The notes under the pieces are model-generated. The model was not told the DNA's origin and did no database searches. It saw only the letters and a program-made list of their open reading frames with translations. DNA of 24,000 nucleotides, taken from NCBI RefSeq assembly GCF_014873875.1, contig NZ_JADBEM010000001.1:10198717-10222716 (forward strand). The letters are read 5' to 3'. Shown piece after piece: positions 10,127-21,197 of the stretch. The number at the start of each line of letters is the position of its first letter. Position 1 is the first letter of the stretch. The translations under genes and the position numbers were made by a program. Source of the stretch: Actinopolymorpha pittospori (GTDB lineage Bacteria; Actinomycetota; Actinomycetes; Propionibacteriales; Actinopolymorphaceae).

Positions 10127-10564
10127 ATGGCTGTGCCGCGGAGGGTTCGCCGGTACTCCGGTGGTGTGTATGACTTGGGTTTGCACGTGGTGTGGTGCCC
10201 GAAGTACCGTCGCCAGGTTCTTGGTGGCCGGGTCGCGGTCCGCCTGCGTGAGTTGATCGAGGCGAAGGCGGCCGAGAAGGGCTGGGAGATTATCGCCCTT
10301 GAGGTGATGCCCGACCATGTGCACCTGTTCCTCAAGCACGGGCCGAAGGCTTCCGCCTCCTACGTGGCGAACCAGTTCAAGGGCTTCACTTCCCGCGTGC
10401 TGCGCGAGGAATTCCCGCACTTGAAGTCGCGGATGCCGACCCTGTGGTCGTCGTCGTTGTTGGTTGCCTCGGTCGGCGCCCTCAGCGCGGGCACGGTGGA
10501 GAAGTACATCGACACCCAGTCCGAACGTCCCTGGGCGAAGGAGCAGGAGGAGGGGCAGGGGTGA
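10127..10564 (+). CDS. tnpA: IS200/IS605-family Y1 (HUH) transposase TnpA
   Basis: MAVPRRVRRYSGGVYDLGLHVVWCPKYRRQVL...VMPDHVHLFL (HUH motif)...TLWSSSLLVASVG...VEKYIDTQ (catalytic Tyr helix). An alternative GTG start lies at 10103. Confidence 0.9.
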   Translation: MAVPRRVRRYSGGVYDLGLHVVWCPKYRRQVLGGRVAVRLRELIEAKAAEKGWEIIALEVMPDHVHLFLKHGPKASASYVANQFKGFTSRVLREEFPHLKSRMPTLWSSSLLVASVGALSAGTVEKYIDTQSERPWAKEQEEGQG

Positions 10565-11769
10565 TACGTGCCTACAAGTTCCTCCTCCGTCCCACTCTCG
10601 GGCAGGCGCGGGCTCTCGGTGAGATGCTGGCTGATCACTGCTCCCTGTACAACGGGGCGTTGCAGGAACGCCGCGAGGCCTATCGGCACGTCTCCAAGAC
10701 CAGCCTCCGGTACGGGGATCAGTCCGCCCAGCTCAAGGAGATCCGCGCCTTCGACCCGGAGCGTCAAGGGCGTTGGTCGTTCTCCTCGCAGCAGGCCACG
10801 TTGCGGCGTCTGGACAAGGCGTTCCAAGCCTTCTTCCGGCGGCTGAAGGGCGGGCAGAAGCCCGGTTTTCCCAGGTTCCGAGGCGTGAACTGGTTCGACA
10901 CGGTGGAGTTCCCCAAGGACGGGGATGGCTGCCGGTGGGACTCCACCCCCCACGATCGCCTCACTCGTGTCCGCCTGCAAGGCGTCGGGCACGTCCGCGT
11001 CCACCAGCACCGCCTCGTGAAGGGTCGCGTCAAGACGGTCAGCGTTAAGCGGGAGGGGCGGCAGTGGTACGTCGTTCTCGCCTGCGACAACGTGCCCGCC
11101 GAACCGCTGCCCGCCACGGGCGCGGTGACCGGTATCGACATGGGCGTCACGCACTTCCTGACCACCTGCCAGGGTGCCCACGTCGAAAACCCTCGACATG
11201 GCAAGCGCAACGCTGACGCCTTGAAGCAGGCGCAGCGGGCGCTCAAGGCGTTCCCCCGAACCAAGCGGGAGAACCGCACCGCCAAGCACCGGCAGACGGT
11301 GGAGAAGGTTGCCAAGCTGCTGCGCAAGGTGGCGCGTCAGCGCCTGGACCATGCACACAAGACCGCGCTTGGGCTGGTCCGCGACTACGACCAGATCGCA
11401 CACGAGCGGCTGAACATTGCGAACATGGTTCGTGCCCCCAGGCCGAAGCCCGACCCCGAGCAGCCCGGCGCGTTCTTGCCGAACGGTGCTGCCTGCAAGG
11501 CCGGACTCAACCGCAGCATTCTTGACGCGGGTTGGGGGGTGTTCCTGGGCATCCTCGCGCAGAAGGCTGAAAGCGCCGCTCGCGTCCTGATCCCGGTCGA
11601 CCCCCGCAACACCTCCCGCACCTGCCCCGAATGCGGGCACGTGGACGGCGAGAACCGCGACGGCGAAAAGTTCCAGTGCACCGCCTGCGACCACCGCGAC
11701 CACGCGGACCGGGTAGGCGCCTGGAACATCGCGCTCAGGGCCGGGCTGGTCCTTCCCGACGTGGCCTGA
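10561..11769 (+). CDS. tnpB: TnpB (OrfB) RNA-guided endonuclease, 402 aa, apparently intact
   Basis: The translation begins VIRAYKFLLRPTLGQ. The RuvC-I Asp is in TGIDMGV and the RuvC-II Glu is in IAHERLNI. The zinc finger is CPECG...CTAC. The RuvC-III Asp is in HADRVGAWNIA. Confidence 0.9.
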   Translation: MIRAYKFLLRPTLGQARALGEMLADHCSLYNGALQERREAYRHVSKTSLRYGDQSAQLKEIRAFDPERQGRWSFSSQQATLRRLDKAFQAFFRRLKGGQKPGFPRFRGVNWFDTVEFPKDGDGCRWDSTPHDRLTRVRLQGVGHVRVHQHRLVKGRVKTVSVKREGRQWYVVLACDNVPAEPLPATGAVTGIDMGVTHFLTTCQGAHVENPRHGKRNADALKQAQRALKAFPRTKRENRTAKHRQTVEKVAKLLRKVARQRLDHAHKTALGLVRDYDQIAHERLNIANMVRAPRPKPDPEQPGAFLPNGAACKAGLNRSILDAGWGVFLGILAQKAESAARVLIPVDPRNTSRTCPECGHVDGENRDGEKFQCTACDHRDHADRVGAWNIALRAGLVLPDVA

Positions 11770-15304: not shown

Positions 15305-15398
15305 CGGCGTAGGGTGCCGCCGACCAGAACCGGATCTTTCGGCTGCAGCTGCCGGTCGAGGCGGATGATGTCCTCGAAGTCGCCGAAGGAGGGTGCTC

Positions 15399-16373
15399 AT
15401 GCGTAAGCCCGACGTGGACCTCCGAGCGCTGGACAGACTGCTGGCGGTGGTCTTCGGCTCGAGCGTCGAGTACACCTGCCGCCGGACGGCGACGGGATCC
15501 TCCACCCAGGTCTATCGGGTGGACCGGGGTACGGGAACGTTCTACGTCCGCATCGCTGAGAGCGCGGGGGACAGCTTCGCCCCGGAGGTCGCACTGCACC
15601 GGGCCCTTCGTACCGCCGGCGCGAACGTACCCGCGGTCGTCCACTACGAGCCCTTCTGCGCATCGCTTGCCCGATCAGTCATGGTGACCACCGAGATCGC
15701 CGGCGGCCCCATGAACAGGTCGACACCGGGGGCCGCGGCAGCGAAGATCGGCCGGGGTGCGGGTCGTGACCTGGCCAGGATCCATGGCGTCGCTGTCCAG
15801 GGCTTCGGTTGGATCATGCGCGAGCACGCCACACCCGGCTGGCCCCTGCGCGCCGAACACGCCACCTACGCCTCGTACGTCGACCCGGCGAGTGTCGGCG
15901 ATCCCCTTCTGGGGATCGGCTTCGACCTCGCCCAGGCCCAGCGTGTCGAGTCGTTGTTGGAGGAAGCCATCGCCGTGGGTCCCGCGGCCGGTGTTGGTCG
16001 GGTCGCGCACGGCGACTTCGACACCAGCCACATCTTCCAGTCGCGCGCCCTCTACACGGGGCTGATCGACTTCGGCGAGATCAGAGGAACCGACTACACC
16101 TTCGACTTCGCGACCCTGATCCTGAGTTCCGACGAGCACCATCCGGCGTCCCAGATTCGCCGTCACGTCGAAGCCGGCTACTCAGAGATCCGAGCTCTAC
16201 CTGAGGACCACGAACGTCGGCTCTACCTTGCCTGCATACTCAGCGCCACGCATCGGCTGTGTGGCTGGTTTCGCCGCGACGGACCTGATGCCGCCCGTGG
16301 ACCGTTCTTCCGGTGGATCCGAGACCGCCTGGCGGACCTTCTCGACAGCGAGCGCCTCGCCGTCCGGGACTGA
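15399..16373 (+). CDS. APH-fold phosphotransferase, paralogue 2
   Basis: An ATG follows an AAGGAGGG motif. FYVRIAES supplies the Lys/Arg region, HGDFDTSHI is the catalytic loop and LIDFGE is the DFG-like motif. Confidence 0.8.
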   Translation: MRKPDVDLRALDRLLAVVFGSSVEYTCRRTATGSSTQVYRVDRGTGTFYVRIAESAGDSFAPEVALHRALRTAGANVPAVVHYEPFCASLARSVMVTTEIAGGPMNRSTPGAAAAKIGRGAGRDLARIHGVAVQGFGWIMREHATPGWPLRAEHATYASYVDPASVGDPLLGIGFDLAQAQRVESLLEEAIAVGPAAGVGRVAHGDFDTSHIFQSRALYTGLIDFGEIRGTDYTFDFATLILSSDEHHPASQIRRHVEAGYSEIRALPEDHERRLYLACILSATHRLCGWFRRDGPDAARGPFFRWIRDRLADLLDSERLAVRD

Positions 16374-16914: not shown

Positions 16915-16968
16915 CCAGTGCGCCAGGCACCACTCGTCCCCGGCGGCGACCAGCCCACTGGAGGGATC

Positions 16969-17997
16969 GTGTACACCCCAACCCCGGAAGTGGTCGCGCA
17001 GGCGTTCGACCTCGGGCGTCCGCTCGGTGACCTCGTGCTCGTCAGGCGCGGCGACACCGACACCTGGCGGCTCGACACCGCCGAGGGCAGCTACCTCGTC
17101 AAGGGGTACTGGTCGAGCTCAGCCGGACGGTACGCGGGTCGACAACTCCTCGATCAGCTCGAGGCCGCGATGGCCTTCGAGCGCCGTGCACTCGAAGCCG
17201 GCATCGACATGGCCGAACCGATCCCGCCGACCGACCCCACGGCGGGTTGGGTGACCCGCCTCGACGAACGGCTCTTCCGGGTCTACCGATGGGTCGAGAA
17301 CCGAGAGCTTCGACCCGACGACGACCTCGCCGGCTGGCTCGGCCGCACCATGGCGCGGATCCACCAGCTGAAGCCGCTGAGCCAGGTGGGCTTACCGGAC
17401 TGGTGGCGCTCGCCGGTCTGGCCGCGGGCGACCTGGGAGGAGTGGTTCGCCGAGGCGCGGCGGCGCGACAAATCCTGGTCGGACCTCGCACAGGAACGCC
17501 TGCCGTCCATCCTCGAGATGTCGGAACGGATCGAACGTCTCTGCGAAGTCGCTGCGGACTGCGTGACGACGCATGGCGACTTCAAGACGCACAACATGGT
17601 CATGGCACCGACCGGCCCGGTGTTGGTCGACTGGGACAGTGTGAGGGTCGACAGCGCGGCCCTGGAGGCTGGTCGGGTCGCCTACATCTTCGGGGCGGCG
17701 GGGATCGAACCGATCAGGCGAATCCTGGCCGCGTACGTCGCGGCCGGCGGTGAGGTCAGCTGGGCCGGACGCGACCTCTTCCTCAGTGTGGCAAGGCACG
17801 ATCTGCAGGTTCTCTTCGAGCGGATCCTGGTCTCGCTCGAACGAGCGCCTGCCGCCCGGTGGATGGGCGACAGCCAGACGACCGAGCACACCATCGGCGA
17901 ACTGCTGCGTGAGCTGCCCGACACGTTCGAGCACCTGGGCCGTCTCGCCGCGGAGATGAGCGACATCGGGTCAACCGGTCAGATCGGCCGCCCGTAA
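16969..17997 (+). CDS. APH-fold phosphotransferase, paralogue 3
   Basis: A GTG follows a GGAGGG motif. An alternative GTG at 16918 lies 4 nt after the cupin stop. SYLVKG is present, THGDFKTHNMV is the catalytic loop and LVDWDS is the DFG-like motif. Confidence 0.78.
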   Translation: MYTPTPEVVAQAFDLGRPLGDLVLVRRGDTDTWRLDTAEGSYLVKGYWSSSAGRYAGRQLLDQLEAAMAFERRALEAGIDMAEPIPPTDPTAGWVTRLDERLFRVYRWVENRELRPDDDLAGWLGRTMARIHQLKPLSQVGLPDWWRSPVWPRATWEEWFAEARRRDKSWSDLAQERLPSILEMSERIERLCEVAADCVTTHGDFKTHNMVMAPTGPVLVDWDSVRVDSAALEAGRVAYIFGAAGIEPIRRILAAYVAAGGEVSWAGRDLFLSVARHDLQVLFERILVSLERAPAARWMGDSQTTEHTIGELLRELPDTFEHLGRLAAEMSDIGSTGQIGRP

Positions 17998-18050
17998 GCG
18001 GGTGGTAGGGACGACCCGGATGTCGGTCAGAATGGTCGGCGGCTTCGTTC

Positions 18051-18164
18051 ACCGTGGACGAGGGAGATCACCGTGGACGAGGGAGATCACCGTGGACGAG
18101 GGAGATCACCGTGGACGAGGGAGATCACCGTGGACGAGGGAGATCACCGTGGACGAAGGAGAGA
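18051..18164. repeat. Tandem repeat of 5 perfect copies of the 19-bp unit ACCGTGGACGAGGGAGATC plus a degenerate sixth copy (16/19)
   Basis: I counted the units directly at 18051, 18070, 18089, 18108 and 18127, with the degenerate copy at 18146-18164. No spacers separate them. Confidence 0.95.
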
Positions 18165-18170
18165 GCGCTG

Positions 18171-18950
18171 GTGGGTGAGGTACCCGAGATGGAGCGGGGA
18201 CGGTTCTCGGCGCCCGTACGCCACGGCGACGAGGTGCACCGGCGCCCCGCCCGCGACAACACGCAGGTGCACAGACTCCTGGAGCACTTCGAATCGGCCG
18301 GATGCACGCTGACTCCTCGTTTCCTGGGCATGACCGCCGATGGTGCTGAACGGTTGACCTTCATCGAGGGCGTCACGGGATATCCGCCGCTTTCGCAGGA
18401 CATCCGATCCGAGGAGGCCCTGGTCAGCGTCGCGAAGGCGATCCGGCAGGTCCATGACGTCAGCCAGAGCTTCGTACCGTCCGGCTCCACCGAGTGGCGC
18501 GGCTACGAGATCGCCCGCCCTGCCACGATCGACTGCATCGGACACCACGACCTGGCGCCATGGAACTTCGTCTTCGACTCGACGGGCGTACGCGGCATCA
18601 TCGACTGGGACACCGCGGGGCCATCCAGCCGGGTCTGGGATCTCTCCTACGCCGCGTATCAGTTCGTCCCGTTCCACCCGACCGCTGATCTGCAGGGGTG
18701 GGGCTGGTCAAGCGAACCGGATCGGCGTCGACGGCTGCGCCTGTTCCTCGACAGTTACGCGGCGGGTATGTCCTCGGCGGAGATCGTGGACACGGCGGTC
18801 ACGAGGATCTACAGCATCGGCGCGTACATCGATCGCGAGGTGGCCAGGGGCAACCCCGCGTTCGAGGTTCATGCCCGCGAGGGGCACGCGGCGGGGTACT
18901 TCAGGGCGGCTTCCGCACTCATGGCGATGCGGGTGTCCAGGGTCCAGTGA
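18171..18950 (+). CDS. APH-fold phosphotransferase, paralogue 4
   Basis: The GTG at 18171 follows a GAAGGAGAG motif. An ATG at 18189 is an alternative start. VRHGDEVHRRPA...LTFIEGV is present, GHHDLAPWNFVF is the catalytic loop and IIDWDT is the DFG-like motif. The ORF-track start at 18054 runs through the repeat and is unlikely. Confidence 0.75.
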   Translation: MGEVPEMERGRFSAPVRHGDEVHRRPARDNTQVHRLLEHFESAGCTLTPRFLGMTADGAERLTFIEGVTGYPPLSQDIRSEEALVSVAKAIRQVHDVSQSFVPSGSTEWRGYEIARPATIDCIGHHDLAPWNFVFDSTGVRGIIDWDTAGPSSRVWDLSYAAYQFVPFHPTADLQGWGWSSEPDRRRRLRLFLDSYAAGMSSAEIVDTAVTRIYSIGAYIDREVARGNPAFEVHAREGHAAGYFRAASALMAMRVSRVQ

Positions 18951-19491
18951 CGCCGGCATGAGGAGCGGGGCCGATCCACTGCACGAGTTCGGTCAACACT
19001 CGCTCATAGGCTCGGTGAGTCAGGTGCACGCCGTCGGGCTCATGGACGTCGACACTCATGCCAGACAGAGCGAATCGAACGTCAAGCGTCGTCCCGCCGT
19101 GCTCGGCGAAGATCGTCGCTGCCGCGGCCGAGTATCGCTGGATCGCAGCGTTCGTCCTGTCACCAGGTCCGGTGGGACCCCGTTCGTCCACGCCGGGCGA
19201 AGTGAGGTAGATGAGCCTGGCCTCGGGCAGGTCCGAGAGCAATCTCGTGAGTTCTCTCCTGAAGCGTGGCAGCGGGACCTCTTTCCAGGGCGCCGCGTCG
19301 TTCGTTCCCACTGACACGACTACTGTGTCGGCCGGCCGATGGCCGTTGAGCTGGCGTGCCAGATCGAGACTGTTCGCCCCGCCTACCGCGGCATTGACGA
19401 CCCGCCGGCCGGTCTCGCGCTCGATATGGCGTGTGCGTGCACCACGAATACGGGCGAGGTGGCTATCGCCAAGGAGGAGAACCTCGGACAT
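18919..19491 (-). CDS. SGNH/GDSL-family hydrolase
   Basis: LLLGDSH is block I, AVGGAN is block II, VSVGTNDA is block III and DGVHLT is block V. Confidence 0.8.
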   Translation of the reverse strand: MSEVLLLGDSHLARIRGARTRHIERETGRRVVNAAVGGANSLDLARQLNGHRPADTVVVSVGTNDAAPWKEVPLPRFRRELTRLLSDLPEARLIYLTSPGVDERGPTGPGDRTNAAIQRYSAAAATIFAEHGGTTLDVRFALSGMSVDVHEPDGVHLTHRAYERVLTELVQWIGPAPHAGVTGPWTPASP

Positions 19492-19584: not shown

Positions 19585-20730
19585 TCAGCGATCGCGGCGG
19601 GCGTTGATCCGGGCGGCCCGGCGCGTCAGGTGATCGCGTTCGGCGAGGTTGGGTGCCTTCTGCGCCGCCTCGGCGTACAGCCGTGCCGCCGTGGCCAGGT
19701 CGCTGTCGCGCTCATGGAGGTACGCCGCCACCGCGGCGCGGCGGGGCAGTGCGTCGTCCAGCGCCGCGAGGGCCGCCAGCCCGGCGCGCGGTCCGTCTGC
19801 CTCCCCGACGGCCACGGCGCGGTTGAGCCGGACCACCGGGCTGTCGGTCAGGCGCGCGAGTTCGTCGTACCACTCGACGATCTGCACCCAGTCGGTCTCC
19901 TCAGAGGTGGGCGCGTCAGCGTGGAGTGCCGCGATGGCGGCCTGGGCCTGGAACTCGCCCAGCCGGTCGCGGGCGAGGGCCGCCTGCAGGATTTTGACGC
20001 CCTCGGCGATCGACCGCGTGTCCCACCGGCCGCGGTCCTGCTCGGCGAGTGGCACCAGGCTGCCGTCGGGTGCGGTCCGGGTGGCGCGCCGGGCATGGTG
20101 GAGCAGCATGAGGGCCAGCAGCCCCGCCACTTCGGGGTGGTCGATCGCGGCCGCGAGCTGGCGGGTGAGCCGGATGGACTCGGCGGCGAGGTCGACGTCG
20201 CCGGAGTAGCCCTCGTTGAAGACCAGGTAGAGGACGCGCAGCACTGTGGCGACGTCGCCGGGCTGGTCGAATCGCACGTCGGAGACCGTGCGCTTGGCCC
20301 GGCTGATGCGTTGCGCCATGGTCGCCTCGGGCACCAGGTAGGCCTGGGCGATCTGGCGGGTGGTGAGCCCGCCGACGGCGCGGAGCGTGAGCGCGACGGC
20401 CGAGGACGGCGTCAGCGACGGGTGGGCACACAGGAAGTAGAGCTGGAGCGTGTCGTCCACCGCCGGCGCGGGCCCGGGTGCCGGCTCCTCCGCGACGAGG
20501 TCCTCACGCCGGCGGCGGGCGGCATCCGAGCGGGTGGCGTCGAGGAACTTGCGCCAGGCCACGGTGACCAGCCAGCCCTTCGGGTCCCGCGGCGGGTCGG
20601 CCAGCCAGACGCGGACCGCCTCGACCAGCGCGTCCTGGACGGCGTCCTCGGCCGCCGCGAAGTCGGCTCCGCGGCGGACGAGGACCCCGAGCACGCTCGG
20701 TGTGAGGCTCCGGAGCAGGGCCTCGTTCAT
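19585..20730 (-). CDS. ECF sigma factor with a long C-terminal TPR-like extension (ECF42-like / DUF6596 type)
   Basis: From the internal Met the sequence reads MNEALLRSLTPSVLGVLVRRGADFAAAEDAVQDALVEA (region 2), then LRAVGGLTTRQIAQAYLVPEATMAQRISRAKR (region 4 HTH), then about 200 further residues. The ATG overlaps the upstream gene's stop (ATGA). Confidence 0.85.
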   Translation of the reverse strand: MNEALLRSLTPSVLGVLVRRGADFAAAEDAVQDALVEAVRVWLADPPRDPKGWLVTVAWRKFLDATRSDAARRRREDLVAEEPAPGPAPAVDDTLQLYFLCAHPSLTPSSAVALTLRAVGGLTTRQIAQAYLVPEATMAQRISRAKRTVSDVRFDQPGDVATVLRVLYLVFNEGYSGDVDLAAESIRLTRQLAAAIDHPEVAGLLALMLLHHARRATRTAPDGSLVPLAEQDRGRWDTRSIAEGVKILQAALARDRLGEFQAQAAIAALHADAPTSEETDWVQIVEWYDELARLTDSPVVRLNRAVAVGEADGPRAGLAALAALDDALPRRAAVAAYLHERDSDLATAARLYAEAAQKAPNLAERDHLTRRAARINARRDR

Positions 20731-21146
20731 CTGAGGTGGCACTCCGTGATGGTGGGCGGCTCGGCCAGGAAGGGGCGCAGCTCGAGCCACTCGTGAATCG
20801 GCTCCCCGCCCTTCCCGGGGGCGGCCGACAGCTCCCCGGCCAGCTCGAGCGCGCGCTCGTGGCTGTCGACGTCGATCACCATCCAGCCGGCGATGAGGTC
20901 CTTGGTCTCGGCGAACGGGCCGTCGGTGACCGGCGGGCGCCCCTCACCGTCGTACCGGACGAACGTGCCCTCGGGGGCGAGCGCCTGACCGTCGACGTAC
21001 TCGCCGGTCTGCTCCAGCCGGGCCGCGAAGTCGTGCATGTACTGCACGTGCGCCGAGATCTCCTCCGGCGTCCACTGGTCCATGGGCACGTCGTTGGCCG
21101 GAGCCGGGGCGCCGCGGTAGTGCTTGAGCAGGAGGTACTTGGCCAT
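20727..21146 (-). CDS. YciI-like / DGPF-domain protein
   Basis: MAKYLLLKHYRG...PPVTDGPFAETKDLIAGWMVIDVDS contains the DGPF motif. A GAGGAG Shine-Dalgarno motif precedes the ATG at 21146. Confidence 0.85.
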   Translation of the reverse strand: MAKYLLLKHYRGAPAPANDVPMDQWTPEEISAHVQYMHDFAARLEQTGEYVDGQALAPEGTFVRYDGEGRPPVTDGPFAETKDLIAGWMVIDVDSHERALELAGELSAAPGKGGEPIHEWLELRPFLAEPPTITECHLR

Positions 21147-21197
21147 CGTGTGTCTCCTCAGTGCTGGTGGGACCATTTTGGTCACCTTCACCGCGGG

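Follow-up and report, generated by a model that had tools for sequence, protein, structure and literature searches.

What is a tandem array of apparent translation starts doing in front of a kinase gene? The question is raised by a locus of the actinobacterium Actinopolymorpha pittospori, where six 19-bp units precede a gene for an APH-family phosphotransferase and each unit junction reads as a Shine-Dalgarno (SD) like motif followed by a GTG codon. The locus is part of a stretch of 24,000 nucleotides (positions 10,198,717 to 10,222,716 of contig NZ_JADBEM010000001.1, assembly GCF_014873875.1), here called the window, and coordinates are counted from its first letter. Comparison with related genomes shows that the array is a single-locus variable number tandem repeat (VNTR) over the ribosome-binding segment of the kinase gene, with alleles of two and six units and with units that evolve in concert. 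We put the probability at roughly 65% that it is a near-neutral minisatellite, made by slippage, in the 5' leader of the kinase gene.

Alleles for comparison came from three independent related lineages, found by a protein search and a cluster listing. One is represented by an ENA soil scaffold (L017) and a Logan sequence (L018), with 96% identity of the kinase protein. Another comprises an isolate assembly labelled A. pittospori (L021, NCBI GCA_053604725.1) and its Logan assembly (L022), with 94% protein identity, and the third is from a JGI metagenome (L023), also with 94% identity. The same leader is found in all of them, and BLAST alignments show that the sequences flanking the array are homologous on both sides, but the window has six units whereas each of the relatives has two, one of the unit-1 type and one degenerate. 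The two-unit alleles are considered reliable, because an extra perfect unit would make 31-mers branch, yet the Logan contigs, built at k=31, pass through the array unbroken. The copy-number difference at one locus between related genomes that characterizes a VNTR is therefore present. A check for copy-number polymorphism had been proposed in a first-pass annotation of this DNA, and such polymorphism was found between lineages (6 versus 2 units).

The units also share their substitutions. In L023 both units read GTGGCCGAG (GTGGCC, an A to C change), whereas all other units read GTGGACGAG, and the second unit of L023 carries G12 of unit 1. These shared changes indicate concerted evolution, through either contraction and re-duplication or gene conversion, and together with the five identical units of the window they constitute the unit turnover seen in VNTRs. 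DNA divergence between the lineages is about 5%, and five identical units against this divergence show that the expansion is recent. The perfect identity of the units had been attributed to very recent expansion or active homogenisation, a view that agrees well with the presence of two units in three related lineages and with the shared substitution in L023. Judging from these alleles, two units are the ancestral state of the clade and the expansion from two to six units is specific to the A. pittospori strain of the window. The alleles differ further by 1-nt indels in the purine-rich tail after the last unit.

Within the window the repeat is unique. Tandem Repeats Finder reported it (18049-18162, period 19, 6.0 copies, 98% matches, score 221) as the only strong tandem array. 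At up to 3 mismatches, ACCGTGGACGAGGGAGATC has 6 matches in the window versus 0.05 expected, and 0/100 shuffles reach 6; the array thus consists of head-to-tail units, within the 10-100 bp range of VNTRs and minisatellites, in excess over chance. Searching for the 19-mer elsewhere, as had been proposed, gave no further copy in the window at the same threshold and 0 matches in the viral contigs scanned, and the two-unit sequence and the left junction of the array had 0 matches in the JGI metagenomes scanned. Exact look-ups of the kinase protein from three candidate starts, and of the product of the upstream gene, gave no closer allele either. The repeat GTGs are located at 18054, 18073, 18092, 18111, 18130 and 18149. 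Those at 18054 and 18111 are in the frame of the kinase, adding 39 and 20 codons, respectively. GTG 18073 and GTG 18130 open out-of-frame open reading frames (ORFs) that stop at 18312, and the ORFs from GTG 18092 and GTG 18149 terminate at TGA 18176-18178. The first-pass annotation had described five perfect units and a degenerate one, an SD-like motif plus GTG at each junction, GTGs rotating through the three frames and the actual SD of the kinase in the sixth unit. All its statements about the sequence itself were verified, the ORF ends computed for all six GTGs agree with the rotation, and AAGGAG does precede GTG 18171 (Table 1).

Table 1. Features of the array, its leader and the adjoining genes, in order of position in the window
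Feature	Position	Strand	Remarks
APH-3, APH-family gene, co-oriented upstream	16918-17997	+	TAA stop at 17995-17997, 173 nt before the kinase start
Leader upstream of the array	17998-18050	+	Common to the relatives although the gene upstream differs
-10-like hexamer CAGAAT	18028-18033	+	Candidate promoter element
Leader ATG	18032-18034	+	Kept in three alleles, lost in L021
Imperfect inverted repeat CTTCGTTCA-CCG-TGGACGAGG	18043-18063	+	Left flank (18043-18051) and first unit; 9-bp RNA hairpin with G·U pairs
Five perfect 19-bp units ACCGTGGACGAGGGAGATC	18051-18145	+	Head-to-tail, 0 mismatches; junctions read GAGGGAG-ATCACC-GTG
Sixth, degenerate unit ACCGTGGACGAAGGAGAGA	18146-18164	+	3 mismatches to ACCGTGGACGAGGGAGATC; homologous to the second unit in every relative
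APH-family (PF01636) phosphotransferase, 259 aa	18171-18950	+	Pfam APH E = 7e-14; gene downstream of the array leader
TGA stop of the ORFs from GTG 18092, GTG 18149 and ATG 18032	18176-18178	+	5 nt inside the kinase coding sequence

The role of the array depends on where the kinase starts. GTG 18171 is taken as the true start, because orthologues at 81%, 72% and 55-58% identity all begin at the matching position, as does NCBI protein WP_192755885.1 (Actinopolymorpha pittospori, 259 aa, N-terminus MGEVPEME), with which the kinase of the window is 100% identical. Two submitter records, MBE1612927.1 and GAA5035809.1, are linked to WP_192755885.1. The 81% identical orthologue, from L019, starts VNDVPEMERGRF immediately after the stop of its upstream gene and has no leader. 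A scan of contigs with the kinase gave 16 loci, from Kribbella, Actinopolymorpha, Streptomyces and Actinoplanes, which at 47-58% identity and without synteny were used as start-codon evidence only, and the 19-bp repeat is absent at all 16. The SD AAGGAG (18156-18161) is positioned 9 nt before GTG 18171 and lies inside the sixth unit; the repeated unit is therefore a copy of the kinase's own ribosome-binding segment. The kinase itself gave no match to an NCBIfam model at the cutoff, with sub-threshold matches only, and no PDB sequence match. A second NCBI record for the A. pittospori kinase, WP_238363258.1 (P0124, 206 aa), starts at an internal Met (MTADGAER...). The differing starts of the two records show that the start annotation of this gene has been unstable, perhaps due to the repeat-filled leader.

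The unit could also be imagined to derive from the start region of the gene, an idea prompted by the many kinase orthologues that begin M/V-D-E. This candidate was rejected, as the alignment of the unit (GTGGACGAGG) with the start (GTGGGTGAGG) is no better than those of shuffles or other windows (p ~0.3).

Does the regular occurrence of SD and GTG indicate a designed device? The actinobacterial anti-SD tail is ACCUCCUUUCU, and the predicted duplex with this tail is -9.3 kcal/mol at every unit junction, where it is followed by a spacer of 5 nt, versus -9.6 kcal/mol at the real site. From these predicted energies, initiation at the SD-GTG junction sites is physically plausible. GTG 18054, with a duplex of only -4.8 kcal/mol upstream, is without an SD. 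Random GGAG-containing units of the same composition have a start codon 5-9 nt downstream, when placed in a cyclic array, in about 17% of cases, and the resulting array is stop-free in all forward frames in about 64%. The SD-GTG module is no sign of design: it follows from duplicating a ribosome-binding segment, and the chance is about 0.17 for the module and about 0.64 for an array open in all frames. The SD plus GTG pattern and the rotation through three frames are by-products of the segment that was duplicated, and not a designed device.

The ORFs that the array opens show little sign of having been maintained. The upstream ORF from the proximal GTG has 9 codons in the window, 8 in L017, 9 in L021 and 44, out of frame, in L023, and the frames and stops differ; its stop overlaps the kinase start as GTGA in L017, and the arrangement in L021 differs by 1 nt. 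An upstream ORF conserved in frame, length or peptide was not found across the window, L017, L021 and L023. Leader identity among the alleles is 88-96% versus 90-95% at third codon positions of the kinase, and constraint on the leader beyond the synonymous rate is not detectable, in a comparison that has low power at such small divergence. The suggestion that the upstream or decoy ORFs are functional thus found no support, as they are not conserved between alleles and the leader evolves at about the synonymous rate. The GC content at third codon positions (GC3) is 0.61 in the in-frame extension versus 0.84 in the kinase coding sequence, and the extension is therefore unlike coding sequence. 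The geometry of TGA 18176-18178 is compatible with termination-reinitiation.

The leader ATG at 18032 opens a 48-codon ORF, which runs across the whole array to TGA 18176-18178 and has no SD before its ATG. The equivalent ATG in L017 and L023 opens a 23-codon ORF with the same stop, and is changed to CTG in L021. The frame of this ORF is retained in the window despite four extra units because the tail is also 1 nt shorter, and there is a 1-in-3 chance that the retention is a coincidence.

The consequences of gaining or losing units were modelled for arrays of 1-10 units. Counted from the kinase start, a GTG at -22 opens a short ORF ending on the start, one at -41 an out-of-frame ORF, and one at -60 is in frame and adds 20 aa; the registers -79, -98 and -117 repeat this cycle. 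With identical units, all placed before the real start, how far a repeat GTG lies from the 3' end of the array determines its register. In the model, gain or loss of a unit adds or removes the most distal GTG only, and the frames of all other GTGs stay unchanged. This contradicts the earlier proposal that it would change which decoy starts are in frame. The frame of the kinase is also unaffected by unit number, because GTG 18171 is downstream of the array, and features upstream of the array (e.g. ATG 18032) alone cycle through the frames. A phase-variable contingency locus is turned on and off by unit number, through a frameshift or through the length of a promoter spacer; here neither applies, and the sigma-70 consensus scan showed no -35/-10 pair around or within the array. 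The array is not a classic ON/OFF frameshift switch, and nothing in the analysis argues for a functional switch. The first-pass annotation had also called such an arrangement unusual for a high-GC actinobacterium, which is an overstatement, since variable tandem repeats near genes are documented in Mycobacterium tuberculosis (PMC12817950).

No sigma-70 consensus promoter or intrinsic terminator was found in 17800-18400, in a scan by which actinobacterial and extracytoplasmic function (ECF) promoters are poorly covered. The scan gave no consensus match in the unit or its junction. A -35-like TGGACG can be recognized by eye, yet there is no -10 at 16-18 nt, and ECF-type motifs in the leader have the wrong spacing. 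Fold z-scores are -2.1 for the six-unit leader and -1.1 for the two-unit leader, and varying the array from 3 to 9 units leaves the real SD and start codon with essentially the same predicted accessibility. With such weak fold z-scores and constant accessibility, RNA structure was rejected as the main mechanism. The leader has no Rfam match at E <= 1, and neither an Rfam match nor a stable covarying fold marks it as a structured RNA. The hairpin pairing at 18043-18063 is weakened in L023 by the A to C change, which falls in the 3' arm, with no compensating change; the hairpin is therefore not supported by conservation. Another inverted repeat, of 14 nt (17957-17970 and 18016-18029), is 86% complementary with 45 nt between its arms and reaches from the end of APH-3 into the beginning of the leader. 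In L021 this repeat is weaker and in L017 it is missing, and it is probably non-functional.

In the history that we favour, the ancestral state of the clade would be a two-copy direct duplication of the 19-bp segment that holds the kinase SD. Replication slippage (slipped-strand mispairing), or unequal recombination between the copies, would then have expanded the array from two to six units. The array would be part of a 5' untranslated region, or of intercistronic RNA after APH-3. Four extra SD-GTG sites, predicted to be about as strong as the real one and placed on a weakly structured, purine-rich leader, may capture ribosomes. Such ribosomes would make short upstream ORFs, some ending at TGA 18176-18178 over the start and some entering the gene out of frame, and minor forms of the kinase extended at the N-terminus by 20 and 39 aa might arise. 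Ribosomes starting at -22 or -41 would sterically block the real site, whereas the ORFs ending at 18176-18178 could feed reinitiation. Kinase output may be modestly shifted by the extra sites, in a direction that is not predictable, and a quantitative effect of unit number on translation is possible.

Several points weigh against the view that the array is a near-neutral product of slippage. A single six-unit allele is known, from one assembly. The nearest comparators are about 5% diverged, and the conservation test has little power at such low divergence. That exactly two units are kept in three lineages could reflect function and not shared ancestry. Finally, the predicted strength of the decoys matches that of the real SD (-9.3 versus -9.6 kcal/mol), and an effect on expression, and hence selection, is plausible.

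Among the alternatives, the array could be an adaptive translational rheostat or contingency element, with a copy number of SD-GTG modules selected to tune kinase output or isoforms. The extra SDs could act as standby or loading sites that raise output, or as decoys with overlapping upstream ORFs that lower it, and frequent slippage would create diversity of expression in the population. Every junction SD is about as strong as the real one and has a suitable spacer, the leader is weakly structured, unit number varies between lineages, and coupling geometry exists in the ORFs that stop over the start and in the GTGA of L017. The kinase gene is, moreover, clustered with others of the APH type, and resistance enzymes belong to this family. 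The promoter repeats of M. tuberculosis, for their part, show variation at 1e-2 to 1e-3 within isogenic populations and have been connected with phenotypes (PMC12817950). Against this stand the unconserved frames and lengths of the upstream ORFs (44 codons out of frame in L023, a 1-nt difference in L021), the lack of detectable constraint above the synonymous rate and the single expanded allele. SD-GTG features also arise easily by chance, the kinase matches no resistance family and the frames of existing starts are independent of unit number. Selection for tuning is accordingly regarded as unlikely. The bolder version, a hypermutable minisatellite of SD-start modules that would be the translational counterpart of the M. 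tuberculosis promoter repeats, is rather improbable. In that version, copy number would determine ribosome capture ahead of the real start and would tune, in a heritable yet reversible way, the level of an antibiotic-kinase-like enzyme and the proportions of its isoforms (+0, +20 and +39 aa). We consider it clearly improbable that the units are DNA-binding sites of a regulator, iteron-like or as operator half-sites within the palindrome CTTCGTTCA-CCG-TGGACGAGG, with additional units titrating the regulator or changing its position. At 19 bp, the direct repeats have the size of iterons, the imperfect inverted repeat is present, all relatives keep the two-unit arrangement, and regulator genes lie nearby in relatives, a MerR-family gene in L017 and L023 and, preceding the APH cluster, an HTH_17 gene in L017, L021 and L022. 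The palindrome is broken in L023 without compensation, however, the window and L021 lack the MerR gene and nonetheless have an unchanged leader, and a spacing of 19 bp does not fit the helical phase of about 21 bp. Iterons in particular had been suggested before, and this idea did not hold up: the relatives have two copies, the unit was found nowhere else in the sequences searched, and the neighbours in this chromosomal region, with a local GC content of about 0.66, are genes for APH kinases, a cupin, an SGNH hydrolase, a sigma factor and a YCII protein, with no replication gene or AT-rich origin among the genes examined.

Two further readings concern the status of the repeat itself, and we give little credence to either. 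If the kinase started at GTG 18054, GTG 18111 or ATG 18032, the repeat would be inside true coding sequence and could cause ON/OFF phase variation by frameshift. The ORF is indeed open from 18054 into the kinase, GTG 18111 has an SD, and the ORF from ATG 18032 would fuse in frame with the kinase at 2, 5 or 8 units. Such a start is very unlikely in view of the orthologues and WP_192755885.1, which begin at the position of 18171, and of the orthologue in L019 that does without the leader; the low GC3 of the extension, the missing SD of GTG 18054, the loss of ATG 18032 in L021 and the strong SD that the real start owns point the same way. It is just as doubtful that six units are an artefact of assembly or polishing and that the strain really has two, as in every other allele. 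Assemblers usually collapse tandem repeats instead of expanding them, an argument also made in PMC12817950, and the array of 114 bp is shorter than one read. The protein is encoded on a 10.56-Mb contig, which would imply a long-read assembly. The five units are, furthermore, perfectly identical and in register, and their flanks are intact.

A near-neutral minisatellite over a ribosome-binding segment can be set beside several known systems. Simple-sequence contingency loci, as in Neisseria and Haemophilus, have units of 1-7 nt in the coding sequence or in the -35/-10 spacer and confer ON/OFF switching. The array has in common with them the presumed slipped-strand mispairing of perfect tandem units beside or within a gene, but it is located in the 5' leader, before the real start and presumably after any promoter, and whatever the unit number, the gene keeps its frame and the existing GTGs keep their register. 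Like plasmid iterons it is made of head-to-tail direct repeats of about 19-22 bp, whereas it is chromosomal (10.56-Mb contig), with no rep gene, origin or AT-rich context identified, has two copies in the relatives and ends in a unit that serves as ribosome-binding site. In the bicistronic design, a leader ORF holds the SD of the main gene and stops at the main start. The ORFs from GTG 18149 and 18092 similarly hold the real SD and stop at TGA 18176-18178 over the start, and the GTGA overlap of stop and start in L017 resembles translational coupling (compare the model of PMC4538824). Between alleles this arrangement is not maintained, however, as the 44-codon out-of-frame ORF in L023 shows, and it is a by-product of the duplication.

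The closest known system is that of the promoter tandem repeats, or intergenic VNTRs, of M. tuberculosis. These have a 58-bp unit upstream of lpdA and a 54-56-bp unit upstream of cysG-efpA; the exact units of 54-58 bp are located 12-29 bp upstream of lpdA and cysG, vary between strains and in isogenic populations (1e-2 to 1e-3), and have been proposed to be phase-variable promoters (PMC12817950). Both systems are actinobacterial and consist of exact head-to-tail units tens of bases or less before the start of a gene, with strain-variable copy number, for which slippage or unequal recombination is presumed, and with a plausible effect on expression. The M. tuberculosis unit, however, is 54-58 bp long and contains a promoter for leaderless genes, acting on transcription, whereas the unit of A. 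pittospori is 19 bp long, contains an SD and showed no promoter-like motif in the consensus scan, so that any effect would probably be translational. Of the two systems, the M. tuberculosis repeats are those for which variation within populations and a link to phenotype have been demonstrated. Mycobacterial interspersed repetitive units (MIRUs; Supply et al. 1997, summarised in PMC3184786) are a dispersed family of 40-100 bp with about 40-50 genomic copies and with small ORFs overlapping the flanking genes. They share with the array tandem intergenic units between co-oriented genes, variable copy number and small ORFs that overlap neighbouring genes, but the 19-mer is a local duplication at a single locus, with no further copy in the 24-kb window or in the metagenome and viral scans, and not a member of a dispersed family. 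Literature searches on natural tandem-SD arrays gave nothing relevant.

The kinase gene stands at the end of a co-oriented cluster of paralogous phosphotransferase genes. Two APH-family genes (15393-16373 and 16918-17997, + strand), with a cupin gene between them, are found upstream of it, and L021 and L022 have the same gene order. Just upstream of the leader there is an indel of about 860 bp (17993-18002 in the window, where BLAST places the breakpoints against L017, 5040-5897 in L017 and ~1773-2640 in L023). L017 and L023 encode here, between APH-3 and the kinase leader, a MerR-family gene (- strand) and an ORF of 146-149 aa, both of which are missing in the window and in L021. The sequence common to the breakpoints is a short CGT(A/C)A microhomology only. 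The APH-3 homologue of L017 has in addition a 377-bp internal deletion.

Downstream, the kinase gene and a convergent SGNH/GDSL hydrolase gene (18919-19491, - strand) share 32 nt at their 3' ends (18919-18950), as they do in L021 and L023. In the region 19585-21191 (- strand), a gene for a sigma-70/ECF-like factor that carries DUF6596 at its C-terminus forms a pair with a YCII-domain gene upstream of it, and the pair is conserved in L021 and L022. Further away, a 441-aa ORF (10444-11769, + strand) with OrfB_IS605 and Cas12f1-like TNB matches is of TnpB type and belongs to an IS200/IS605-family element; it overlaps a 656-aa antisense ORF without a Pfam match.

At this locus the growth of a tandem repeat across a gene's ribosome-binding site is documented in a species that is not a mycobacterium, and both the ancestral (two-unit) and the derived (six-unit) alleles are known. 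The 19-bp array can serve as a strain marker. Gene callers should beware of it, since the array is open in all frames and false, SD-backed starts add 20-39 residues to the protein. Should unit number prove to change kinase output and to vary within cultures, translation-initiation regions would join promoters as sites of copy-number phase variation in actinobacteria.

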